From the NCBI RefSeq assembly GCF_054482525.1, contig NZ_CM137006.1: DNA of 64,000 nt; one strand, written 5' to 3'. A program made the position numbers and the translations under genes. This document shows, one piece after another, positions 1 to 11,985 of this stretch. The notes under the pieces are model-generated. The model did not search any database. It was not told the origin of the DNA and saw nothing but the letters and a program-made list of their open reading frames with translations. Position 1 is the first letter of the stretch, and every line of letters begins with the position of its first letter.

Positions 1-96
1 TTTCCCGTTCGTTAACAAACAAGTGCGCCATCTCATATCCGCTCCTTGCGGAGGCTTACGTCTGCATGTCAGTTACTCATTAAAGGAATATCAGAA

Positions 97-630
97 ATGA
101 ACAATTCACCCTTACTCAACCATTACCAGGCCTGGCTGGATGATTTTACCCGCGTCAGTCTGTTCCACGGTTTATGCCAGAAGCACATCTCGCAGTGGCA
201 CAGGCTGGCGATAACCGCCTGCCCGATGCCAGGCAGTAGCGTAACAGAAGTCGTCATTCCACAGTGTCTGCTGCCGGTTACCCGCACCAGTCGACTGGGA
301 TCATGTACTGTCGCCCCCGGTCTGACTAAACACATCGATTATGCCCTTCTGCCCGGTGTGCTGCTCAGCGAATGTTATCGACTGGGGAAAAGTCGGCTGG
401 CAGACCAGTTACAGATGTTATTCCGGCTTAATGTACAGTCCGGTATGCGCCAGGCGCTGATCCTGCTGTGCTGGTGTGAGCTGGCAACAGGTAAGGATAT
501 GGAGGAATGGTATGCGCTGCATCTGCCACTGCCTGACACGCTGACGCAATGGTTGGCAGTAAAACAGCGGGCATACCGGGGACTGAAGACGCTGACTGAC
601 GGTTACATTCGTGCCACCCAGCCGATGTGA
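97..630 (+). CDS. hypothetical protein (island cargo, no domain recognised)
   Basis: Long ORF in six-frame track (46..630); ATG at 97 preceded by aggaa is the likely start. No motif recognised by eye. Confidence 0.35.
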   Translation: MNNSPLLNHYQAWLDDFTRVSLFHGLCQKHISQWHRLAITACPMPGSSVTEVVIPQCLLPVTRTSRLGSCTVAPGLTKHIDYALLPGVLLSECYRLGKSRLADQLQMLFRLNVQSGMRQALILLCWCELATGKDMEEWYALHLPLPDTLTQWLAVKQRAYRGLKTLTDGYIRATQPM

Positions 631-640
631 GGGACGGATA

Positions 641-1024
641 ATGCTGATACCAAAATGCTATATTGCACAGCGTAAAACCGGTGAGATTTTCGCTGTCAGC
701 CAACTGAATTCAGGCGATGAAGAGTGGTTCTGCCATCACTGCCAGTGCCCGTTGATTTTCCATTCCCCCACCATAACGTCACCGCCCTGGTTCGAACACG
801 ACATACTTCAGGGACAACCAGAAGCACTGTTGCAATGCCCCTATCTGGCCCCCGTCAATGCAAAGCCTTCAGCGGTGGCTAAGCTACAGCGCCTTCTGGC
901 ACAACTCCCACCGGTCATCACGACCACACAATGGCAATGTACCATGTGCGGCCTGTCATATTGCGGCGAGAAGTGCTGCCCTCAATGTAGAAAAGGGATA
1001 TATAGTCGGGAGATACGAATTTAG
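641..1024 (+). CDS. hypothetical Cys-rich protein (several CxxC-type pairs, possible zinc-binding)
   Basis: ORF 611..1024; ATG at 641 after gagggacgg. Translation contains CHHCQC, CTMC, CGEKCCPQC clusters. Confidence 0.35.
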   Translation: MLIPKCYIAQRKTGEIFAVSQLNSGDEEWFCHHCQCPLIFHSPTITSPPWFEHDILQGQPEALLQCPYLAPVNAKPSAVAKLQRLLAQLPPVITTTQWQCTMCGLSYCGEKCCPQCRKGIYSREIRI

Positions 1025-1351
1025 TGATACGTACCAGGCAATCATGGGATTGATTGGTACACCAGAAAGTTATTATATGGGGGCATATAACTTCGGAGTA
1101 AAAATCAATCACTTTCTATCATCCGGCCCCTGGTGCTTGTGGATTCGTAATTCATAAACCATGACGGGTTGGTAATATTAATTAACCAACTGATATATAA
1201 ACAATATTATCTCATTGTCACGCTCATATACGGTTACTCATACACGACAGCCTTAATTGCTGGCATCACCCTTTAAATCCTTAATCCCTTTAACAGCCCA
1301 TTGCGGGTAAGGCTTTGCCCTGCCCGTAATTTATTACCCAAGGAAAATTAT

Positions 1352-1963
1352 ATGTTTGACAATATCTGTCTCGATAGACGGCATGCACCATTCAACACCA
1401 CTTACCTACAGCGTATTCTACGCGTTATAGATAACGCGACTGCAGAGCATGCACGGACGATGGCAGTTCGGGTAGACCTGCGTCTTCCTGACAATATGCT
1501 CATTAACCGACAGGGCCTGATATCTCGTTTCATTGAATCCCTTGATGCAAAGATTGCAGCGCGCTACAGAAGTAAGTTGAAGCAGGGTAAACGAACATAT
1601 CCATGCCACCTTCGCGATGCCTGGGTTCGGGAGGTGGGTGAGATTAATCAGAAATCGCATTACCACATGGTGTTGTTCGTGAATAACGATACATTCAATG
1701 GGCTGGGGAGTTACAAAGAAGATGGGACGGGCCTGGCGTCCTTGATACGAGAGGCCTGGCTGAGTGCTTTACAGCTTAGTCACCGCCCAGAGCACTGGAC
1801 GCTAGCCCACTATCCCGATAATCCACTTTATTTTCTGGATATTAATTCCGCTGGCTACAAAGAGTCTTATGACCAACTGACGTTTCGGTTAAGTTATTTT
1901 GCGAAGGAACGCACCAAAGATTACAACAGGGAGGAACGTTCATTCGGATGTAGCCAGGGCTGA
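1352..1963 (+). CDS. YagK/YfjJ-family protein (inovirus Gp2-like domain common in CP4-type islands)
   Basis: ORF 1301..1963; ATG at 1352 after aaggaaaa. Translation (MFDNICLDRRHAPFNTTYLQRIL...) resembles YagK/YfjJ proteins as I recall them. Confidence 0.55.
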   Translation: MFDNICLDRRHAPFNTTYLQRILRVIDNATAEHARTMAVRVDLRLPDNMLINRQGLISRFIESLDAKIAARYRSKLKQGKRTYPCHLRDAWVREVGEINQKSHYHMVLFVNNDTFNGLGSYKEDGTGLASLIREAWLSALQLSHRPEHWTLAHYPDNPLYFLDINSAGYKESYDQLTFRLSYFAKERTKDYNREERSFGCSQG

Positions 1964-2753
1964 ATTCGGTACATCGTTTTGCTGGTGGCACTATATTTGC
2001 GCCACAACGCCATAGTGTGTCAACCACACCGCTATTCCCCTCACAATACCGTTAAACCATTCAACCACATGGCGTCAGTCTGCCCATCAAGGGCGGCTTA
2101 CACCTGCTTGCAGAAGTCGGATTATATTTGACGCCAACGACGGTAATAGTCGTTTGACGAGCGCCAGAACGGTACAGAAAGATATATAGTATCGTAGGCA
2201 GGCTTGATACCCCTGTTATCGTGCAGTCTTGGCACTGCGCTTGGTTCGGATACCATTACTAGGGCAAAAAGCACTGTGTGGTCTGTGGTATCGGGAAATA
2301 TAGCACGGAAGAATCAAACTGGCTGATGAATGACACCAGAGCGCCTGCGTGAGGTCCACCGTATTTCCTCCAACCAACACAGAGAAAAAATCATAATGAG
2401 CTACCACCAGTTAATCATCACAAATACAAAGTCGGCGGACAGTGCACGCATTCACCACGTATTACAGCAACCCGGATGGTTTCGAAATACAATTGGCAGC
2501 GTTGAAAGAGGTTGCATTGCAAATGGTTTTTTCAGTGATGACTGCCTGCAGTGACCTGTTTAAATGATCACTGTCACGTTATCTGGATTGCGCAGTTGCT
2601 TGGGTTGCAGTATGTCTCATCTTAGACTGTGTTGATGTTATTGTTGAGATCAGCACTCCGGCAGATGGCCAAATTCAGTAAACCACTTCAAAAGGCACAT
2701 TTATGCAACCTCATCAGCGGTGACCCGTAAAAATTGCAAATTAAGGAGCAATA

Positions 2754-4853
2754 ATGAACCGAGAGCAAGCCCAACAACTGCTGCAGACTGCTTTGGCTAA
2801 CCCTGCTGCTGAATTTCGTGATGGTCAGTGGGAAGCCATTGATGCATTGGTTAATCGTCGTCAGAAACTACTGGTTGTACAGCGTACCGGCTGGGGTAAG
2901 AGCTCGGTTTATTTTATTAGTACTAAAATCTTCCGTGACCGCGAGATGGGGCCTACGATTATTGTATCGCCACTGCTTGCATTAATGCGTAACCAGATTG
3001 ATTCAGCGCAGCGTTTGGGAATAGTTGCCGAAACAATGAATTCGGCTAATAGGGAGGATTGGCAGGCTGTAACTCAACGAATTCTCAATAACCAAATAGA
3101 CTGTTTGCTCATTTCCCCAGAGCGGCTAGCAAATGATACCTTTATTGAGACGGTCCTTCAGCCCATTGCCGATCGAATCGCCCTAATGGTAATTGACGAA
3201 GCACACTGTATTTCAGATTGGGGTCATGATTTTCGTCCTGATTATCGCCGTATCGTAAATATCCTTCGTCAATTGCCCGCCAACACCCCAGTACTAGGTA
3301 CGACTGCAACTGCCAATAACCGAGTTGTTGACGATATCCAAGCCCAGCTTGGGGATATACAAATCCACCGAGGTCCTCTTACTCGCGAAAGCCTCGCTCT
3401 GCATACAATGTCTTTACCCGATCAGGCATCTCGTTTAGCTTGGCTCGCCCAAGTTATTCCGATGCTACATGGAACAGGCATTATTTACGCATTAACAGTT
3501 CGTGATGCCGAGCAGGTGGCAGAATGGTTGAGCATGCACGGTATAGTTGCCATGGCATACCACGGTAGCATCGAGGCTGAAGGTTTTGAGAACAGCAATG
3601 CTTACCGTCAGTACTTAGAAGAATTGTTACTTAACAACCAGCTTAAGGTTTTAGTAGCAACGACCGCGTTGGGTATGGGTTATGATAAACCTGATTTAAG
3701 TTTTGTAATCCATTACCAAGCTCCGAGTTCAATTGTTGCATACTACCAGCAGGTGGGTCGGGCTGGGCGCGGTATTGCTCATGCAACAGGTGTACTGATG
3801 TCGGGGATAGAAGATAACGACATCCATGATTTTTTCCGTGATTCTGCATTTCCATCGGAGGATCAAGTTAACGATATTCTTCGAGTGTTGGAAAATAATG
3901 ATGGTCTATCACTCCGCAACATCGAGGAAAAAACTAACCTACGCCACGGCCAGATTGAGAAAGTACTTAAGTTACTGAGTGTAGAAAATCCAGCCCCCAT
4001 CATTAAAAATGAAAATCGTTGGGTTAGGACCACAGTTCGCTATCAAATGGATCATGCCCGAATTGCTCATTTGACAGGACAACGTATTCAGGAATGGGAA
4101 GAGGTTCAAGCGTACCTTACCGACACTGGATGCAAAATGGCATTTCTACGTCGTTCTCTGGACGATCTCGACCCAACTCCATGTGGTAAATGCTCGTCCT
4201 GTATTGGTCAACCAATTATAAATCAAATCATTGACCCTGCTTTGGTACATCGTGCAGGGACTTTCCTAAAACATGCAGAAATGCCGATTACTCCAAAAGC
4301 TCAGGTAGCAGCTAATGCTTTTTTGCAATATGGCTTCAGCGGCAATTTGCCACAGCAGATTAGAGCACAAGAAGGTCGAGTGTTGTCTCGCTGGGGAGAT
4401 GCTGGTTGGGGACGGTTAGTAGCCGATAATAAACGTGCAGATCACTTTGATGATGAGCTAGTGGTTGCTATGGCCGAGATGATTCAGCAGCGTTGGCAAC
4501 CGAATCCAGCGCCACAATGGGTATGCTGTGTACCTTCACGCAATCATGTACAATTAGTCCCTGATTTCGCTCGCCGCTTGGCGGCATGTTTGAGGTTGCC
4601 TTTTTTCAATGCCATCAGCAAGGTTAGAGATAACCAACCTCAAAAGGGGCAACAAAACCGTTTCCATCAATGCCGCAATCTGGACGGTGCTTTTGAGATA
4701 AATCAACCTCTACCTAACACACCGGTTCTACTTGTAGATGACATTGTAGATTCAGGCTGGACGTTAACTGTCATCGCAGCACTCCTACAACGCGCAGGTA
4801 GTGGTAAAGTATACCCTGTTGCACTTGCTTCATCTTCGGTAAAAGACTCATGA
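2754..4853 (+). CDS. RecQ-family helicase fused to a C-terminal phosphoribosyltransferase-like (ComF-like) domain; ShosT-like candidate
   Basis: 699 aa ORF. N-terminal RecQ motifs (FRDGQWEAI, TGWGKSSVY Walker A, DEAHCISDWGHDFRPDY); C-terminus has a PRTase-type motif (VLLVDDIVDSGWT). RBS aaggag upstream. Confidence 0.75.
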   Translation: MNREQAQQLLQTALANPAAEFRDGQWEAIDALVNRRQKLLVVQRTGWGKSSVYFISTKIFRDREMGPTIIVSPLLALMRNQIDSAQRLGIVAETMNSANREDWQAVTQRILNNQIDCLLISPERLANDTFIETVLQPIADRIALMVIDEAHCISDWGHDFRPDYRRIVNILRQLPANTPVLGTTATANNRVVDDIQAQLGDIQIHRGPLTRESLALHTMSLPDQASRLAWLAQVIPMLHGTGIIYALTVRDAEQVAEWLSMHGIVAMAYHGSIEAEGFENSNAYRQYLEELLLNNQLKVLVATTALGMGYDKPDLSFVIHYQAPSSIVAYYQQVGRAGRGIAHATGVLMSGIEDNDIHDFFRDSAFPSEDQVNDILRVLENNDGLSLRNIEEKTNLRHGQIEKVLKLLSVENPAPIIKNENRWVRTTVRYQMDHARIAHLTGQRIQEWEEVQAYLTDTGCKMAFLRRSLDDLDPTPCGKCSSCIGQPIINQIIDPALVHRAGTFLKHAEMPITPKAQVAANAFLQYGFSGNLPQQIRAQEGRVLSRWGDAGWGRLVADNKRADHFDDELVVAMAEMIQQRWQPNPAPQWVCCVPSRNHVQLVPDFARRLAACLRLPFFNAISKVRDNQPQKGQQNRFHQCRNLDGAFEINQPLPNTPVLLVDDIVDSGWTLTVIAALLQRAGSGKVYPVALASSSVKDS

Positions 4854-6175
4854 ATGTATCTAACTTATTGTCAAAAACAGCCCAGGCGACCTTACTTCTG
4901 ACTAGTTATTTTTCTAAAGCAACTAGCGAAAACGCCAAACCACTTTCCAACGCCGAATGGGGACGTTTTGCGCTATGGTTGAAAGAAAAAGCAGTTACGC
5001 CAGCTGACTTGTTGGACTCTGATCCTCAAACCTTACTGAATGGCTGGTACGACTCCCGTATCAGTACGGATCGGATCATTGAGTTGATGAATCGAGGACA
5101 TAGCCTCGCTTTGGCTATGGAGAAATGGCAACGGGCAGGCTTGTGGGTAGTGACACGTTCTGATCCAGAATATCCATGGAGATTAAAACATCGGCTTAAA
5201 ACAGACTCTCCCCCTGTTTTATTTGGCTGTGGCAATAAAGCCTTATTAAATAGAGGGGGATTGGCTGTCATTGGTTCTCGAAATGCCAATGCATCAGACC
5301 TTACTTTTACTGATCACATCGGCGTTAAAGCTGCGGACGAAAATATAGCTGTTGTATCTGGTGCTGCACGTGGAGTAGACGAAACAGCCATGTTAGGTGC
5401 AATGAGGCAAGGTGGAGTTGTAATCGGGATTTTGGCAGATAGCCTGTTAAAAGCTGCGACTAGTGCCAAATGGCGCAAGGGGCTTATGAATGACCATGTT
5501 GTGCTAATATCCCCTTTTTACCCTGAGGCTGGTTTCTATGCGGGAAATGCCATGGCTCGCAATAAATATATCTATTGCTTGTCGGATAGTGCATTGGTTA
5601 TTCATTCTGGTCGAAAAGGTGGAACAATTAGTGGGGCAGAGGAAAATCTTAAGAAAGGATGGGTGCCACTATGGGTCAATCCAACAACCGATCTAGATTC
5701 AGCTAATGCTGACTTAGTGAGCAAAGGGGGACATTGGTTGCCAAGTGATAGTAATGGCCTATCCATCGAGAATTTGCTTAAAAATAATGACAGATCAAAA
5801 ATGCAGTTAAAAGCAGAGCCCCAAGATCTTTTTTCAGAATTGTCGCATCCAGAATTAATTATTGGATCTGCAGAGAAATCGTCAACTCAAGCTCTCGAAA
5901 AAGATTGGACTGCTACTATTAATGAAGAAACTCCCAACCTAATAACTACGGAAAAAAAATTAGAGGAAAAAGAGTTAGATGTAAATCCTATAGACTTTTA
6001 TCTGCTATTCAGGACAGAATTACAGCGATTGGCCGAACATCCAATTACAGTAGATAGGTTGACAGAAGTCACTGGGTTGAATAAATCGCAAGTGCTTGAT
6101 TGGTTGAAACGTGCTGAACAAGATGGTTTGGTAAAAAAACTAAACCGTCCTACAAGATATCAATTAAATGAGTAG
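4850..6175 (+). CDS. DprA/Smf-like Rossmann-fold protein; ShosA-like candidate
   Basis: 441 aa ORF whose ATG overlaps the upstream stop (ATGA). DprA-type motifs: LAVIGSRNAN, VVSGAARGVDETAMLGA, ARNKYIYCLSDSALVIHSG. Confidence 0.7.
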   Translation: MNVSNLLSKTAQATLLLTSYFSKATSENAKPLSNAEWGRFALWLKEKAVTPADLLDSDPQTLLNGWYDSRISTDRIIELMNRGHSLALAMEKWQRAGLWVVTRSDPEYPWRLKHRLKTDSPPVLFGCGNKALLNRGGLAVIGSRNANASDLTFTDHIGVKAADENIAVVSGAARGVDETAMLGAMRQGGVVIGILADSLLKAATSAKWRKGLMNDHVVLISPFYPEAGFYAGNAMARNKYIYCLSDSALVIHSGRKGGTISGAEENLKKGWVPLWVNPTTDLDSANADLVSKGGHWLPSDSNGLSIENLLKNNDRSKMQLKAEPQDLFSELSHPELIIGSAEKSSTQALEKDWTATINEETPNLITTEKKLEEKELDVNPIDFYLLFRTELQRLAEHPITVDRLTEVTGLNKSQVLDWLKRAEQDGLVKKLNRPTRYQLNE

Positions 6176-6271
6176 TAACAGGCTTTAATGAAGCAACTAT
6201 AACCGGTTTGGCCTTAATGATTTTTAGTTAAGCTTGGGCATATAAAAGTTTAGAATTGATATAATGGTATT

Positions 6272-6302
6272 CAATTACATTAGTGTTGAGCTAATGTAAT
6301 TG
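6272..6302. terminator. hairpin between convergent genes (12-bp stem caattacattag / ctaatgtaattg, 7-nt loop)
   Basis: Inverted repeat read directly in the gap between the DprA-like gene end (6175) and the RelA/SpoT-like gene end (6357). Confidence 0.45.
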
Positions 6303-6356
6303 ATCCTGATTTAAATATCATCTATCAGAATTGAACAATTTTACATAGTTTATACT

Positions 6357-7346
6357 TTATGTCTTTCTTTCAAGTGCAACTCCTAGATCCGCTGCCATTT
6401 TTTGGATTAGCCTCCAATCTAGCGGCCATTCTTTTTCTAAAGTAGATCTCCGTCTTTTGATTAACCAGTAAACGAAAATAACAACGCTTTGTTCAAAGAA
6501 ACTACTCCCTTCTTTGCCATCCTGAATTAGTAGTTCGAGCTCAGGAGTCTCTTCTATAAATTGATGTAATCTTTCTATCGTATCGGGTTTGATCACTTCT
6601 TTAAATGTATCTAGAATTAATAAAGTCGATTTTTGATTGTTTGGTTTATTCTTTGTTAAAGCTATGTAGATATTATCTAAAGTTCGCTGAATTCCTGCGT
6701 AACCATCAGATGCTGCGTTAATTGCTTTCGATACTGAACAGAAAAAATCATCCGTAGTTTCTATTAACGCCATGCTTTTTGCTACAGTTCTATGTATATC
6801 TGGTTCAACTATAGTTTTTGCTTTATATATGGCATCATGAGTTAACTCGGCATAGGCATGTTGTAATAAAGATCTAACCTGTATCTCACATGGAATGCCT
6901 TGTTCAATGATAACTCCATTATAATCAAAGGATTCTTTTGCAGTTACTATAAAATGTACGGATTGATACGTGAAAATTAATGGTGTATTTAATCTTTCTT
7001 CTTCGTAGTGTCTTGATGTCTTATAATGCCATTTATTACTACTTTTTATTATTTCACATATTTCATCTATATCTGAAGTAAGTAAAACGACAAACCTGAT
7101 GCCAACTTTATCTTCAATCTCTTGGTAGGGGTTTTTGTATGATTTTTCTTTTCGATGAAAAGCTTTATCGATTAGAGATGTCTTTTCTTTTATTCTCGGT
7201 GTCGCAGGTTGCTTGAGAAAGCTATTGAGGTCCCGCTCTTTATTTTCTGAGAGTTCTTTGCAAATATTTGAGACGACAAAATCTCCCCATGCTTTATACA
7301 TGGGTAGTTCTTTTTCCCAAAGTTGCGAAAACTCTAATTCATTCAT
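6357..7346 (-). CDS. RelA/SpoT-domain nucleotidyltransferase (alarmone-synthetase-like, stand-alone)
   Basis: 329 aa ORF. Synthetase-domain motifs GIRFVVLL, YQSVHFIV, EIQVRSLLQHAYAELTHD; no hydrolase or TGS/ACT region seen. Start ATG 8 nt after upstream stop. Confidence 0.65.
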   Translation of the reverse strand: MNELEFSQLWEKELPMYKAWGDFVVSNICKELSENKERDLNSFLKQPATPRIKEKTSLIDKAFHRKEKSYKNPYQEIEDKVGIRFVVLLTSDIDEICEIIKSSNKWHYKTSRHYEEERLNTPLIFTYQSVHFIVTAKESFDYNGVIIEQGIPCEIQVRSLLQHAYAELTHDAIYKAKTIVEPDIHRTVAKSMALIETTDDFFCSVSKAINAASDGYAGIQRTLDNIYIALTKNKPNNQKSTLLILDTFKEVIKPDTIERLHQFIEETPELELLIQDGKEGSSFFEQSVVIFVYWLIKRRRSTLEKEWPLDWRLIQKMAADLGVALERKT

Positions 7347-7354
7347 TAATTAGC

Positions 7355-8446
7355 TCATTCCTGAAGGGTTATCTTGTCCTTGATGAGGATTGTTGTCCAC
7401 TCAGCAGGTTTACCATCTTTATCGAGTTCACCTATAGTAGATTCAATTACAATATGGCTTTTAAAAACTTCCGCAGGGGCTGTGATTTTTATATTTTTAC
7501 TAAAGTTAAGCTTTCTTGTTTTTAATTTGCTTTCAATATGCTCGTTGTCTCTTGTGAAAGAGGTTTGTGGTATACCAGATTCATGAGCATACTCAAGATA
7601 AAGATCCTTAATACTATCATCAAAAAATCTTTCAGCATAATCTTTAGCTGAAATTACATCCGATTTTTCATGTTTAAGATATGTAACTAATGCATTTTTA
7701 AGCACATTTTTCTTTTCCTCGCTGACATCCAATTCATTAAGAAATTCACTCGTTTTTTCATAGAAATTCTTTGTTGTGCGGGCACTTGTTTCTGGGTAAC
7801 CGCAACCTAAAAAATTTTGATAAAAATATTGTGCTGCAGCTTTACCATCCGACTTACTGATTTGATAGTCAGAAATCATCACATCCCAAGATTTATTAAG
7901 ATCAGTATTATCAAGAGAATTGGTTGATTGGAAAAAACCGGCAGTTTTATAAAGTTTTGTGGATGGTGTAAGTAATATTTCTTCAACGAATTTTAATGAT
8001 ATTTGGCCCGTTTTATCGTCGATTACTTTTTCATATGCACTATAAATATCAGCCTTGATAATTCCAATGAATTTTCTTTTATTTACACCATAGTCGCCAG
8101 AAAAGATTACTACAATTCCGCCTGGAATTGCTCGTCTTGTCTGCGCATCTGCCAGTTTATTAGCTATTGTGTAAGTCTCATCAATATAATCCTCTCCCTC
8201 TTTATCAATTAAAGTTGTAGCAATATAAGGAACATAATCTTTTCCATGCTCCTTTATTTGCATTTTTACGGCTTTAGAACCATCACCTAAAGCGTCGATT
8301 ACTCGTGATTTAAAACCTTGCAAGGCATCAGCATCAAATTTTATAAATGAAGAACCTCTTGTTGGTTCTATTTTGTTTCCTTCTTCGTCGCGCTGATGAA
8401 TTTGGTGGATAATTATTTTGTTAATATTCATTTTGCTGATATTCAT
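7355..8446 (-). CDS. NdpA/YejK-like (NA37 family) nucleoid-associated protein homologue
   Basis: 363 aa ORF. N-terminus IIIHQIHQRDEEG resembles the E. coli YejK IALHQLIKRDEQ region as I recall it. AT-rich. 17-nt gap to upstream gene. Confidence 0.55.
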   Translation of the reverse strand: MNISKMNINKIIIHQIHQRDEEGNKIEPTRGSSFIKFDADALQGFKSRVIDALGDGSKAVKMQIKEHGKDYVPYIATTLIDKEGEDYIDETYTIANKLADAQTRRAIPGGIVVIFSGDYGVNKRKFIGIIKADIYSAYEKVIDDKTGQISLKFVEEILLTPSTKLYKTAGFFQSTNSLDNTDLNKSWDVMISDYQISKSDGKAAAQYFYQNFLGCGYPETSARTTKNFYEKTSEFLNELDVSEEKKNVLKNALVTYLKHEKSDVISAKDYAERFFDDSIKDLYLEYAHESGIPQTSFTRDNEHIESKLKTRKLNFSKNIKITAPAEVFKSHIVIESTIGELDKDGKPAEWTTILIKDKITLQE

Positions 8447-8463
8447 TTCTGTGTAGTTCCATC

Positions 8464-8931
8464 TTATTGATTATCTGATTTTATATTTTTGCTTTCAATA
8501 TATTCTTTGTGAATATTATTCCATTCTTGACTGTCTTTTTCCCAAATAGATTTATATTCATCAAAAAGACTATCAATATCTGACTGGGTTACATCTTCTT
8601 TGGATTTTAAGTAATTAACTTTGTTTCTAAGTTGATACATGGCTAGCAAAGTAGCTTTTTGCCTAAACCATAATTTTTGATAATCAAATCTTGCAGTCCA
8701 CCCACTAACTAGAGTAAGACAGGCACTCACAATAAGAGCAGAATTTTTCTGTATTTTTTCATATCCAGATAAATCGAAGGCTAATATCAGTGTAGTAATA
8801 GTGCTCAAAAATATAGTCATGAAAAAAAATATTTTTAATTTTTTTTTATTCCATTTCGCCTTGCACTTTATTATGTTGATACTTTTATGGATTTCATCCA
8901 GTAAAAACTGTTGAGAAGATGTTATAGACAA
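8464..8931 (-). CDS. small membrane protein with two predicted transmembrane helices (SLATT-like topology, unverified)
   Basis: 155 aa ORF; hydrophobic stretches IFFFMTIFLSTITTLILAF and SALIVSACLTLVSGWTA. First codon is TTG; an internal ATG (MTIFL...) is an alternative start. Confidence 0.45.
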   Translation of the reverse strand: MSITSSQQFLLDEIHKSINIIKCKAKWNKKKLKIFFFMTIFLSTITTLILAFDLSGYEKIQKNSALIVSACLTLVSGWTARFDYQKLWFRQKATLLAMYQLRNKVNYLKSKEDVTQSDIDSLFDEYKSIWEKDSQEWNNIHKEYIESKNIKSDNQ

Positions 8932-8971
8932 TTATCTCACCTGAAATATTTTCACATTGGTAATAAAACTA

Positions 8972-9011
8972 CTCGCACTAACTGGTATGAGCTCATACCA
9001 GTTAGTGCGAG
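8972..9011. promoter_or_regulatory. perfect 40-bp palindrome (ctcgcactaactggtatgag / ctcataccagttagtgcgag) between integrase 3' end and the AT-rich operon
   Basis: Read directly; the two 20-nt arms are exact reverse complements centred on gagctc. A U-rich tract follows on the minus strand, so it may terminate the integrase transcript. Confidence 0.5.
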
Positions 9012-9175
9012 CATGGCTACCGCATTTGATGTGCTCAACAGCTTTGTATTGAGATACTTTTAACAATGTTGTATTTAACTAGCTGATACTATTAATTATA
9101 AATGAGAATCAGAGCAAAAACGAGCGGTAGGTAAGATATAGACCGAAAGCATATAAAACCATAAATATCAAATCA

Positions 9176-10378
9176 TTACACTACCGCATGTAAGATTCTA
9201 CGTACAGAGTGTAGATCAATCAAATAGTCTGAATACCACTGCATCATCTCTCTTCGCCCCTCCAGATATTGCGCATGGTTGTACGTCCCACGAATCGCAT
9301 TCTTATCGACATGCGCAAGCTGGGTTTCAATCCATGCCGTGTTGAACCCTTCCTCGTGCAAAATCGTACTCATCGTGTGACGGAAACTATGCCCCGTTAC
9401 CTTCCCCGTATACCCAATCCGTTTGAATACCTGATTAATACTCGCTTCACTCATCGTTTTACGTGGATCATTGCGCCCTGGGAACACCAAAGGATATTGC
9501 CCGGACATTACTTTGAGCTGTTGTACGATTTCTAGCGCTTGGGTAGAGAGGGGTACAAGATGGGGCCGTTTCATCTTCATACGCTCTGCAGGTATTTCCC
9601 ACACCGCTTTCTCAAGATCAAACTCACTCCAGAAAGCACCTCGAAGCTCGCCAGTACGAACTCCCGTAAGGATAAGCAGACGAGCGGCAAGAACAACTAA
9701 CGGGCTTCCTGTATAACCTGCGAGAGCTTTAAAGAAGTCTGGTAACTCCTCTACTGACAGGAAGGGATAATGCTTCGATTCATGCCCTGACATCGCGCTG
9801 GTTAGGTCCGCTGCAGGATTGTATTCCGCGCGACCTGTAACGATGGCATAACGAAAGACTTCGCTGCAGCGCTGGCGAACCTTCTTGGCCTTCTCTGTCG
9901 CGCCACGGCTTTCGATTCGACGCAGCACATTAAGCAGAACCAGCGGTTTGATTTCATTCACTGGCAGTTGGCCGATATAGGGGAAAATATCTTTATTGAA
10001 GGCTTCGATAATATCGGAGGCATAGCCTTCTGACCACCGGCTCACCTTAGTACCGTGCCACTCAAGCGCCACAGACTGGAACGTGTTGTTGAGCTGCACA
10101 TCGCGAACCAGCTTTTCTTCTTTCTTTGCGAAAGACGGGTCGATACCCTCGGCCAGCTTTTTCTTGGCTTCATCACGCAGAGCCCTCGCTTGTGCAAGGG
10201 AAACAGCCGGATAGACCCCAAAAGCCATACGCTTCTCTTTTCCATTGAAGCGATATTTCATTCGCCAGTATCGAGAACCAGAGGGAACGACTTCAAGATA
10301 CAAGCCAGCACCATCTGCCAGCTTATAGGCTTTCTCTTTGGGTTTAGCAGCGTCTACCTGTCGCGCATTAAGCTTCAT
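9176..10378 (-). CDS. int: P4-type tyrosine integrase (site-specific recombinase)
   Basis: ORF 9176..10417; likely start is the ATG at 10378 (MKLNARQVDAAKPKEKAYKLADGAGLYLEV...) with GGAG 9 nt upstream. Sits directly beside the tRNA-Thr 3' end. Confidence 0.85.
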   Translation of the reverse strand: MKLNARQVDAAKPKEKAYKLADGAGLYLEVVPSGSRYWRMKYRFNGKEKRMAFGVYPAVSLAQARALRDEAKKKLAEGIDPSFAKKEEKLVRDVQLNNTFQSVALEWHGTKVSRWSEGYASDIIEAFNKDIFPYIGQLPVNEIKPLVLLNVLRRIESRGATEKAKKVRQRCSEVFRYAIVTGRAEYNPAADLTSAMSGHESKHYPFLSVEELPDFFKALAGYTGSPLVVLAARLLILTGVRTGELRGAFWSEFDLEKAVWEIPAERMKMKRPHLVPLSTQALEIVQQLKVMSGQYPLVFPGRNDPRKTMSEASINQVFKRIGYTGKVTGHSFRHTMSTILHEEGFNTAWIETQLAHVDKNAIRGTYNHAQYLEGRREMMQWYSDYLIDLHSVRRILHAVV

Positions 10379-10541
10379 TGGGGGCATCTCCCTGGACCGA
10401 ACACAGAATGCCCCCACTTATGCCCCCAACTGCGACTTGATTTCGGTTGAGTCCAGTTGATAACAGGAGATAAGATACGGGCCAGAAACCGCAGTATACG
10501 GGCTTTTAGTTGATTTCGGTAGACTTGGGAAGAGTTTGAAA

Positions 10542-10617
10542 TGGTGCCGATAATAGGAGTCGAACCTACGACCTTCGCATTACGAATGCGCTGCTCTACC
10601 AACTGAGCTATATCGGC
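10542..10617 (-). tRNA. thrW: tRNA-Thr (anticodon CGU), thrW-like
   Basis: Reverse complement reads GCCGATATAGCTCAGTTGGTAGAGCAGCGCATTCGTAATGCGAAGGTCGTAGGTTCGACTCCTATTATCGGCACCA, 76 nt with CCA end and anticodon loop TTCGTAA. Confidence 0.9.
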
Positions 10618-10731
10618 CCTGAAAGGACATGTTCACGAACGTGAATCACGGTGGACAAGGTTAAAACTAACCGGGCGATGCGTCAATGGCCTTGTGAATC
10701 AAATGGCTACTTTTGCATCACCCGATTTTAT

Positions 10732-11985
10732 TTACGCACGAATGGTGTAATCACCAATGCCGATCCACTTGTAAGTGGTCAGCGCTTCCAGCCCCATTGG
10801 GCCACGCGCGTGGAGTTTTTGTGTGCTTACCGCCACTTCCGCGCCCAGTCCAAACTGGCCGCCGTCGGTAAAACGCGTAGAGGCGTTAACGTAAACAGCG
10901 GATGAATCTACTTCATTAACAAAACGCTGGGCGTTGCGCATATCGCGGGTCAGGATCGAATCGGAGTGTTGTGTGCCGTGTTCACGAATATGAGCGATGG
11001 CATCGTCAAGATCGCTGACGATTTTGACGTTCAAATCTAATGACAGAAACTCATCGTCATACTCTTCAGCTTTAACAGCAACCACCTTCGCGGGACCTGC
11101 CTGCAATTGCGTCAGTGCGGTAGCATCGGCGTGTAACGTCACACCGCTTTCAGCCATCTGTTTGCTTAACACAGGCAGGAAGCTATCGGCGATGTTTTTA
11201 TTCACCAGCAACGTTTCTACCGTATTACATGTGCTCGGACGCTGAGTTTTCGCGTTGACGATTACTTTCAGGGCTTCAGCGATCTCTGCACTTTCATCAA
11301 CGTAAATATGGCATACGCCTATACCGCCTGTGATCACCGGGATTGTCGACTGTTCGCGGCACAGCTTATGCAGGCCAGCGCCTCCACGCGGGATCAGCAT
11401 GTCGATGTATTTATCCATACGCAGCATTTCACTGACCAGCGCGCGGTCAGGATTATCAATCGCCTGTACTGCACCTGCCGGTAAACCACAAGAGTTCAGG
11501 GCGTCCTGAATCACCGCCACCGTTGCAGCGTTAGTGCGGCAGGTTTCTTTGCCACCACGCAGGATCACCGCGTTACCCGTTTTCAGGCACAGCGAAGCGA
11601 CATCAACCGTCACGTTCGGGCGCGCTTCATAAATCACGCCAATCACCCCCAGCGGTACGCGACGACGCTCCAGACGCAGACCGCTGTCCAGCACACTACC
11701 ATCAATCACCTGCCCCACCGGATCGGCGAGATTACACACCTGGCGCACATCGTCGGCGATGCCTTTCAGCCGTGCGGGCGTCAGTGCCAGACGGTCAAGC
11801 ATCGCTTCGCTAAGGCCATTGGCACGCGCGTCAGCAACATCCTGGGCGTTAGCGTTGAGGATGATTTCGCTTTGAGCTTCCAGTTCATCGGCGATTTTTT
11901 CCAGCACACGATTTTTTTCGCGGCTGGAGAGTTGCGCTAATTTATACGAGGCTTGCTTCGCGGCAATGCCCATTTGTTCCAGCAT
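10732..11985 (-). CDS. proA: gamma-glutamyl phosphate reductase
   Basis: 417 aa translation matches E. coli ProA as recalled ([19 protein letters not shown]...). Confidence 0.95.

Follow-up and report, generated by a model that had tools for sequence, protein, structure and literature searches.

Two overlapping genes near the start of a 64,000-nucleotide window (the whole stretch of DNA analysed here) raise the question of which system they belong to. A sequence-only reading had proposed ShosTA itself or a helicase-fused variant of it. Both genes lie on the + strand:

2743-2748, + strand: Shine-Dalgarno-like AAGGAG, 5 nt 5' of the psyrT ATG, read from sequence
2754-4853, + strand: psyrT/rqlH (ORF1), 699 aa; predicted toxin with RecQ-like helicase, Zn-binding module and ComF-like PRTase
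4850-4853, + strand: ATGA overlap of psyrT stop and psyrA start, read from sequence
4850-6175, + strand: psyrA/rqlI (ORF2), 441 aa; predicted DprA/SLOG-like antitoxin

At the junction (GACTCATGAATG), the ATG of ORF2 (4850-4852) shares bases with the TGA of ORF1 (4851-4853), confirming the ATGA overlap that had been claimed for the DprA-like gene, and the same 4-nt overlap recurs in the homologous loci L004-L024. The exact ORF1 and ORF2 proteins (RefSeq WP_001078521.1 and WP_001103161.1, labelled merely 'RecQ family helicase' and 'DprA') were found on 310 and 436 public contigs, respectively, and are therefore not chance reading frames. A scan of positions 1900-6500 revealed no convincing promoter, promoter-like sites being rarer than after shuffling of the sequence, and no terminator-like site on the + strand 3' of psyrA. 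Rfam matched only a tRNA within positions 1-11000.

The description of ORF1 as a RecQ-type helicase core joined to a C-terminal PRTase was borne out by Pfam and by motifs, and three parts can be delimited:

2808-3815, + strand: RecQ-family SF2 helicase core (aa 19-354), from NCBIfam, Pfam, motifs and a PDB match
4131-4202, + strand: putative zinc-binding cluster of four cysteines (C460, C477, C480, C483), with a weak RecQ_Zn_bind match
4548-4829, + strand: ComF-like PRTase domain (aa 599-692), from Pfam, NCBIfam and PADLOC

Pfam placed DEAD at residues 23-194 (4e-23), Helicase_C at 239-339 (4e-13) and a weak RecQ_Zn_bind at 442-483, and the profile search for a C-terminal PRTase returned Pribosyltran at 599-686 (2e-5); no HRDC domain was among the Pfam matches. 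The NCBIfam family recQ_fam (TIGR00614) passed its cutoff (245.7 versus 219.8 bits), and solved RecQ structures matched the helicase at 6e-52 in a sequence search of the PDB. The helicase motifs comprise GWGKS (46-50, Walker A K49), DEAH (148-151, D148) and motif VI QQVGRAGR (332-339), while the PRPP-binding motif VLLVDDIVDSGWT spans residues 658-670 (nt 4725-4763) and includes D662 and D663. Residues 606-692 were matched by the NCBIfam models GntX (1.2e-6) and comF (5.4e-6). ORF1 thus has the RqlH-clade layout of a RecQ-like ATPase core, a tetracysteine module and a ComF/PRTase-like C-domain without HRDC. K49, D148, D663 and the four cysteines are invariant across six homologues, and the first three occupy the positions of residues mutated in RqlH of E. 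coli F11 (PMC4670107). Assignment as housekeeping RecQ was rejected (TIGR01389, 274 versus 640 bits; PRK11057, 215 versus 1015; no HRDC match), as was assignment as ComF/GntX, for which the PRTase core alone matches (TIGR00201, 26.5 versus 233.6; PRK11595, 28.1 versus 304). The PDB sequence search gave RecQ cores, DprA/ShosA and marginal PRTase matches but no full-length relative, and a search by sequence with the ORF1 PRTase domain did not pick up the ShosT structure.

In ORF2, two regions were recognised:

5126-5728, + strand: DprA-type Rossmann/SLOG domain (aa 93-293), from Pfam
6020-6163, + strand: putative C-terminal winged-helix/HTH (aa ~391-438), from weak Pfam matches

The first of these was matched by DNA_processg_A (93-293, 1.2e-39) and SLOG cluster4/LDcluster4 (139-261, 1e-8), and solved DprA and ShosA structures matched ORF2 at 1e-11 to 3e-10. 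The putative winged helix (HTH_29, 0.011; MarR_2, 0.05; DprA_WH, 0.54) can be aligned to the end of the DprA-annotated protein in an RqlH/RqlI-type gene pair of E. coli SK1144, located between gntU and yhgN; an HTH predicted at the C-terminal end of RqlI proved dispensable. A genuine DprA/Smf was rejected (TIGR00732, 87.2 versus 191 bits; PRK10736, 65.7 versus 495).

Comparing both proteins with defence-system profiles showed that the pair most closely matches PsyrTA, also described as RqlHI. The PADLOC PsyrT profile (PDLC03928) matched ORF1 with E=0 and 1045 bits (residues 2-698 to profile 2-688/689), and the PsyrA profile (PDLC03927) matched ORF2 at 7.3e-170 (residues 2-440 to profile 2-397/398). 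ORF1 is 64% identical, gap-free and colinear, to the 698-aa RefSeq 'RecQ family' protein of the SK1144 gntU-yhgN pair, and ORF2 is 48% identical to its partner. The toxin gene lies directly 5' of its partner, on the same strand and overlapping it, which is the gene order of PsyrTA/RqlHI (PMC4670107). The gntU-yhgN pair is present in 1677 of 5426 complete E. coli genomes and the allele studied here in one. As candidates in their own right, the ShosT architecture and ShosA membership were both rejected: ORF1 begins with a RecQ helicase and the ShosT profile covers just residues ~590-695 (3.4e-6), while ShosA profiles cover the DprA core of ORF2 alone (88-270; 3.6e-25 and 5.3e-11, versus 7e-170 for PsyrA). 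As judged from sequence comparison, the two genes very probably form a toxin-antitoxin and anti-phage module of the PsyrTA (RqlHI) type and belong to the cargo of a thrW integrase island.

The island context is given by the genes that follow the pair:

6357-7346, - strand: RelA_SpoT toxSAS-like gene, neighbouring separate system
7355-8446, - strand: NA37/YejK-like nucleoid-associated protein gene, neighbouring separate system
8464-8931, - strand: SLATT gene, neighbouring separate system
9176-10417, - strand: tyrosine integrase of the island (NCBIfam PRK09692, 1.7e-89; RefSeq version 400 aa)
10542-10617, - strand: tRNA-Thr (CGU), thrW, the integration site, from ARAGORN, Rfam and RefSeq

Beyond the tRNA lie proA and proB. 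A search of 22.5 kb of the E. coli SCU-102 record, which the window matches, for direct repeats marking attL and attR gave short chance repeats alone, so the left end of the island lies further out. Megablast-level searches of plasmid and phage collections returned no match, and there is thus no sign of the allele on either. The RelA_SpoT/NA37/SLATT cluster (6357-8931, - strand) resembles the recently described type I PANGU (10.64898/2026.04.06.716658). All five genes occur together beside an integrase in E. coli, Hafnia, Klebsiella, Citrobacter, Enterobacter and Yersinia, in copies that are all at least 90% identical and therefore may stem from a single, recently spread island. An obligate linkage of PsyrTA and the PANGU-like cluster was rejected: below about 90% identity it is lost, and the more distant PsyrTA relatives examined are without the cluster and accompanied by type I R-M instead. 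In relatives whose PsyrT is 85-87% identical, the pair is embedded in or adjoins a type I R-M operon, in the order hsdM-hsdS-psyrT-psyrA-hsdR in Aeromonas and similarly arranged in Yersinia and Spongiibacter.

The biology of the family has been described in P. syringae PsyrTA (Sberro 2013), in E. coli F11 RqlH-RqlI (Russell & Mulvey 2015) and with regard to phage defence (Millman 2022). In F11, RqlH causes PRTase-dependent SOS induction and filamentation that are rescued by RqlI, mutation of D663 abolished toxicity, the two proteins co-immunoprecipitate, and an operon is common to both genes (PMC4670107). PsyrTA/RqlHI is counted among phage-defence systems, and a psyrA deletion was not transformable (Millman et al. 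preprint). For the PsyrTA system of E. coli NILS69, no protection from the tested phages could be detected, whether in K-12 or in the strain it comes from, and the system impaired growth (bioRxiv 10.1101/2024.12.20.629700). Toxicity, neutralisation and partner binding are known for F11 RqlHI and P. syringae PsyrTA; for the locus here, the sequence establishes that it belongs to the family, has the identical architecture and conserves the mutated residues.

By analogy to these members, PsyrT would be an RqlH-clade RecQ-like helicase, by homology a 3'-to-5' ssDNA translocase, whose toxic part is the C-terminal ComF-like PRTase domain. PsyrA would be made from the psyrT transcript via the ATGA overlap and is expected to bind PsyrT directly, restraining the PRTase. 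Phage infection may upset this complex, possibly because PsyrA is lost or titrated or because the helicase encounters phage DNA intermediates. The PRTase could then act on PRPP and some nucleotide or DNA substrate, and the resulting DNA stress, SOS induction, filamentation and growth arrest would abort the infection.

Alternatively, the pair might mainly be an addiction or stabilisation module of the integrative island, with island loss followed by poisoning through a longer-lived PsyrT. The toxin-antitoxin behaviour of the family (PMC4670107; Millman et al. preprint), the position of the pair on a mobile island that carries an integrase, the retention of the five-gene block in K. quasipneumoniae with most of the island gone and the lack of defence by the NILS69 system are all in line with such a role. 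However, the other E. coli pair occupies the non-mobile chromosomal site gntU-yhgN, close relatives reside within type I R-M operons as is typical for defence genes, and phage defence has been reported for one family member (Millman et al. preprint). We consider a mainly stabilising role unlikely; it would be compatible with defence.

Less probable still, and in our view improbable, is a DNA repair or genome-maintenance helicase acting cooperatively with a regulatory partner on host DNA, or substituting for RecQ as suggested for mycobacteria. Russell and Mulvey laid out such a cooperative DNA-maintenance role rather than defence (PMC4670107), and ORF1 does belong to the RecQ-family helicases. 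Yet deletion of rqlHI had no fitness or repair phenotype in the same study, ORF1 fails the cutoff for a genuine RecQ equivalog, and the allele was horizontally acquired (GC 46%/42% versus about 51% in flanking core genes), is present in just the one complete E. coli genome and is found in defence contexts.

PsyrTA and the adjacent PANGU-like cluster might also act as a coupled pair instead of independent cargo, for which we see only a slim chance. The joint occurrence of the five genes next to an integrase in several genera, kept in K. quasipneumoniae despite loss of most of the remaining island, would fit such coupling, while the high identity of these copies and the type I R-M setting of more distant relatives speak against it. 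In such a scheme, DNA damage caused by released PsyrT could free the nucleoid-associated sensor, upon which the alarmone-synthetase effector fires, or signalling could run in the reverse direction; PsyrTA and PANGU types are each reported to function alone.

It is very improbable that the genes form a natural-competence or DNA-uptake module analogous to ComFA/ComFC/DprA. The likeness to these proteins, pointed out in the sequence-only reading, held at the domain level, with a ComF/GntX-type PRTase (1e-6 to 5e-6) and a DprA domain (8.5e-25); the analogy had already been published in 2012 and 2015 (PMC3378886; PMC4670107). Against a role in uptake, the scores fall far short of every competence equivalog cutoff, ExPEC showed no detectable transformation (PMC4670107) and there are no further com genes in the neighbourhood.

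ShosTA itself, or a ShosTA variant whose toxin gained a full helicase, is scarcely credible. The logic of a PRTase partner plus a DprA-like partner, invoked in the sequence-only reading, agrees with the description of ShosTA (Millman et al. preprint) and is common to both systems, partial ShosA (3.6e-25) and PRTase-restricted ShosT (3.4e-6) profile matches exist, and ORF2 hits the solved structure of ShosA at 2.8e-10. In contrast, the profiles for PsyrT and PsyrA cover the proteins over their whole length and score far better, ShosT (424 aa) is a pyrophosphatase-like hydrolase fused to a PRTase without helicase, and purification of His-tagged ShosT did not bring down ShosA (PMC11961720), whereas RqlH and RqlI bind each other. 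Moreover, the helicase-PRTase fusion has been in the literature since 2012 (PMC3378886). Because both genes clearly copy PsyrTA (RqlHI), a described system, the locus is not a ShosTA variant; on sequence grounds, the profile comparison already refutes that reading. The sequence-only reading would have given way to a known system if canonical ShosT had exactly this architecture; in spirit that is the outcome, although the known system is PsyrT/RqlH and not ShosT.

The reading of ORF1 as DpdF of the Dpd (7-deazaguanine DNA modification) system, prompted by matches to numerous PADLOC DpdF profiles (best 1.5e-89), has a negligible probability and is already excluded by cutoff and gene context, with NCBIfam DpdF (NF041063) at 137.7 versus 550 bits, no dpd neighbour genes, a far higher PsyrT profile, and short 'DpdF' profiles on the PRTase end that resemble fragments of RqlH-like proteins.

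The locus is an already described system and no new ShosTA variant. It can be filed as a standard PsyrTA/RqlHI, which PADLOC-type annotation would name directly, and it raises no new question about PsyrTA. The allele belongs to the widespread gammaproteobacterial form of PsyrT (85-87% identical across Yersinia, Aeromonas and Spongiibacter) and would be a reasonable representative for family studies.

Compared with known PsyrTA/RqlHI, the pair shares the toxin-first order with start/stop overlap, a toxin whose helicase, linker, Cys4 cluster and ComF-like PRTase are colinear with the E. coli gntU-yhgN protein, a partner in which an N-terminal region precedes the DprA/SLOG domain and an HTH closes the chain, the residues K49, D148 and D663, and full-length matches to the PADLOC profiles. 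It differs from the gntU-yhgN pair in sequence (64%/48% amino acid and 63-66% nucleotide identity), in its site, a thrW integrase island, and in a longer DprA-HTH linker of PsyrA (about 40-60 extra residues), and its PsyrT is nearer to the Yersinia, Aeromonas and Spongiibacter homologues than to the E. coli gntU-yhgN protein. RqlH of M. smegmatis (Ordonez, Unciuleac & Shuman 2012), a 3'-5' helicase, has the same RecQ-like ATPase, specific linker, zinc-binding tetracysteine module and ComF/PRTase-like C-domain without HRDC (PMC3378886), but is without an RqlI/PsyrA partner, and the work on it concerned helicase function rather than toxicity.

PsyrTA/RqlHI is a known sister system of ShosTA (Kimelman 2012; Rousset 2022; Millman 2022; Pu et al. 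2025). In both, the toxin is a PRTase that needs its PRPP-loop aspartates to be toxic and the antitoxin resembles DprA; both also cause DNA stress with filamentation and act against phages. They differ in that the PRTase is fused to a pyrophosphatase-like hydrolase in ShosT and to a helicase in PsyrT, and in that ShosTA is a type IV TA without co-purification of its two proteins, whereas RqlI binds RqlH. The competence proteins ComFA, ComFC (GntX) and DprA likewise comprise an SF2 helicase, a ComF-type PRTase and a DprA Rossmann fold, but the helicase here is RecQ-type rather than of the ComFA DEAD-box type and is fused to the PRTase. Finally, a 2025 preprint reports that retron PRTases share one clade of the PRTase family with those of ShosTA and PsyrTA. 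Among other defence-associated PRTases, type III retron effectors and Ophion OpnC differ in their partners, reverse transcriptase with ncRNA or rSAM with PHP, and have no helicase fusion.

The gene pair lies on the plus strand, preceded by the sequence AAGGAG 5 nt 5' of the ORF1 start codon, and its two reading frames and their domains are as follows.

2754-4853, + strand: ORF1 (psyrT), 699 aa
ORF1 aa 23-194: DEAD domain (Pfam, 4e-23)
ORF1 aa 239-339: Helicase_C domain (Pfam, 4e-13)
ORF1 aa 442-483: RecQ zinc-binding domain (Pfam, weak match)
ORF1 aa 599-686: Pribosyltran domain (Pfam, 2e-5)
ORF1 aa 658-670, nt 4725-4763: PRTase-type motif VLLVDDIVDSGWT, read from the sequence
4850-6175, + strand: ORF2 (psyrA), 441 aa
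ORF2 aa 93-293: DNA_processg_A domain (Pfam, 1e-39)
ORF2, overlapping DNA_processg_A: SLOG domain (Pfam)
ORF2 C-terminus: winged-helix domain (Pfam, weak matches)

Because the junction reads GACTCATGAATG, the start of ORF2 overlaps the stop of ORF1 as ATGA. This overlap, the RecQ helicase with a C-terminal PRTase motif in gene 1 and the DprA/Smf-like nature of gene 2 had all been described in the sequence-only reading, and were confirmed by the junction and the Pfam matches. Judged by profile and residue comparisons, the locus is PsyrTA/RqlHI, a system already known and named. The PADLOC PsyrT profile matched ORF1 over its full length (E=0, 1045 bits; aa 2-698 on profile positions 2-688 of 689), as did the PsyrA profile with ORF2 (7e-170; aa 2-440 on profile positions 2-397 of 398), and PsyrTA and RqlHI are one system (Millman et al. 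preprint). In F11 RqlH, the residues chosen for mutation by Russell & Mulvey were K49, D148 and D663, the last within DIVD (PMC4670107); all three residues occupy identical positions in ORF1 and, together with cysteines 460, 477, 480 and 483, are invariant among six aligned homologues. In line with the RqlH clade as defined on the M. smegmatis enzyme, ORF1 comprises a RecQ-like ATPase, a clade-specific linker, a tetracysteine module and a ComF/PRTase-like C-terminal domain, and lacks HRDC (PMC3378886).

The previously suggested analogy to ComFA/ComFC/DprA held at the domain level, with matches of ORF1 aa 606-692 to GntX (1.2e-6) and comF (5.4e-6) and of ORF2 to the DprA family model (8.5e-25; all NCBIfam), a likeness that is already published (PMC3378886, PMC4670107); it did not extend to family membership, as every competence equivalog cutoff in NCBIfam was missed by a wide margin. 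The same reading had proposed ShosTA itself or a helicase-fused ShosTA variant. In PADLOC, ShosA profiles covered only the DprA core of ORF2 (3.6e-25), and the ShosT profile covered only the PRTase end of ORF1 (3.4e-6), a match seen only when this end was searched alone. ShosT (424 aa) joins an N-terminal pyrophosphatase-like hydrolase to a C-terminal PRTase and has no helicase, whereas ORF1 carries a RecQ-type helicase; canonical ShosT thus does not have the same architecture, and ShosA was absent from the ShosT co-purification (PMC11961720). Given these partial matches and the end-to-end PsyrTA profiles, ShosTA and a new variant of it were both rejected. A genuine RecQ and DpdF were excluded by curated cutoffs and gene context.

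The psyrTA pair is carried on a horizontally acquired island, in which the following features lie beyond psyrA, followed by proA and proB.

6357-7346, - strand: RelA_SpoT toxSAS-like protein, 329 aa
7355-8446, - strand: NA37/YejK-like nucleoid-associated protein, 363 aa
8464-8931, - strand: SLATT_1 protein, 155 aa
9176-10417, - strand: tyrosine integrase
10542-10617, - strand: tRNA-Thr CGU

GC content is 46% in psyrT and 42% in psyrA versus about 51% in the flanking core genes, and 33% in the three-gene cluster (6357-8931) that lies on the opposite strand between psyrA and the integrase. Type I PANGU combines the NAP sensor Pag1A with the toxSAS (alarmone-synthetase) effector Pag1B, and a subset of its operons also includes a SLATT gene (April 2026 preprint, bioRxiv 10.64898/2026.04.06.716658); judged against this description, the cluster fits type I PANGU. 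With PADLOC 2.0, the RelA_SpoT protein gave only a PDC-S33 candidate match, the SLATT protein weak 2TM 'Effector' matches, and the NA37 protein none. The five-gene block of psyrTA and this cluster was intact beside a P4-type integrase in every examined copy of at least 90% identity (compared loci L004-L019 and L021), which came from six species: E. coli, Hafnia alvei, K. quasipneumoniae, C. koseri, E. hormaechei and Y. enterocolitica. The copies from K. quasipneumoniae retain the block next to proA without the other island genes present elsewhere, and the integrase there is either disrupted or gone.

Upstream, RefSeq annotates a gene for a small AlpA-like HTH regulator, of which only the tail end falls inside the window start, together with a hypothetical protein and a zinc-ribbon protein (all within 1-2750); a gene of the YagK/YfjJ type ('inovirus Gp2 family' protein) follows at about 1352-1963. 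The roughly 790 nt directly 5' of psyrT (1964-2753) hold no annotated gene and a single weak promoter-like site (2229-2256). From about 19000 to 64000 (compared locus L010) the window is E. coli backbone. This part carries the yafNOP-dinB region, fadE, the truncated remains of a lateral-flagellar locus (lafU and an flhA pseudogene) and an ISAs1 element; at the window end it runs into an incomplete type VI secretion cluster that encodes Hcp and two Rhs core proteins (one of them disrupted) and includes a VgrG pseudogene.

E. coli SCU-102 (NZ_CP051753.1) matches the window with 100% identity, and RefSeq names its pair 'RecQ family ATP-dependent DNA helicase' and 'DNA-processing protein DprA'. 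SCU-102 was the only complete E. coli genome with psyrTA or the PANGU-like cluster at high identity, yet the exact proteins recur across several Enterobacterales, on hundreds of contigs. Of 5426 complete E. coli genomes, 1677 carry a more divergent pair (63-66% nucleotide identity) under the same RefSeq names; in the two inspected it sits between gntU and yhgN, and it is presumed to be the rqlHI locus common in E. coli. ORF1 and the gntU-yhgN helicase align without gaps (64% identity over 698 residues), and the partners share 48% identity, the linker that precedes the C-terminal helix-turn-helix being longer in ORF2. In the cystitis isolate E. coli CLSC36 (L003, 7935-10031), the gntU-yhgN helicase gene has an internal stop and carries a pseudogene annotation, next to an intact DprA-like partner; this isolate seems to have lost the toxin but retained the antitoxin.

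More distant relatives in Yersinia, Aeromonas and Spongiibacter likewise encode a 699-aa PsyrT and show the 4-nt overlap, and in these the toxin is far more conserved than the antitoxin (PsyrT 85-87% versus cognate PsyrA 67-73% identity to the window genes). Their PsyrT proteins show no indels over 699 alignment columns, the E. coli gntU-yhgN protein (64%) being the outlier among the aligned PsyrT sequences. These relatives lie inside or adjoining type I R-M operons (L020 and L022, 4905-8335; L023 and L024, 4905-8371), in two cases between hsdS and hsdR:

Aeromonas veronii: hsdM-hsdS-psyrT-psyrA-hsdR
Spongiibacter: hsdS-SMC-like-SLFN/AlbA-psyrT-psyrA-hsdR, the extra genes encoding an SMC-like ATPase and an SLFN/AlbA_2 ATPase
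Yersinia: helicase-psyrTA-hsdMSR

Since the PANGU-like cluster is absent from the Yersinia, Aeromonas and Spongiibacter loci and their settings are type I R-M, psyrTA is a two-gene unit complete in itself that turns up repeatedly in defence neighbourhoods.

M. smegmatis RqlH is a 3'-5' helicase whose PRTase-like C-terminal domain is dispensable for that activity (PMC3378886). Without its partner, RqlH induces SOS, makes cells filament and lose growth, and raises mutation rates; this toxicity requires the PRPP-binding aspartate, and the PRTase domain by itself is insufficient (PMC4670107). RqlI rescues RqlH-expressing cells and co-immunoprecipitates with RqlH, the rescue requiring its N-terminus and DprA-like region but not the HTH (PMC4670107). 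PsyrTA was reported as phage-defensive, with a psyrA deletion unobtainable (Millman et al. preprint); the E. coli NILS69 PsyrTA gave no protection against the phages tested (bioRxiv 10.1101/2024.12.20.629700). Based on this homologue biology, PsyrA would keep PsyrT in an inactive complex, infection would release or activate the PRTase, and its activity would cause DNA or nucleotide stress and in turn cell arrest. The pair may also stabilise the island, which is compatible with defence.

The architecture of PsyrTA/RqlHI is that of a helicase-PRTase fusion paired with a DprA-like protein; it was described in 2012-2015 (PMC3378886, PMC4670107) and joined the list of anti-phage systems in 2022 (Millman et al. 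preprint). The novelty remaining lies in the five-gene co-carriage with the PANGU-like cluster, the type I R-M embedding of relatives and the stronger conservation of toxin than antitoxin, none of which affects the classification: the locus is a somewhat divergent, horizontally spread PsyrTA/RqlHI allele in an ordinary defence-island setting.
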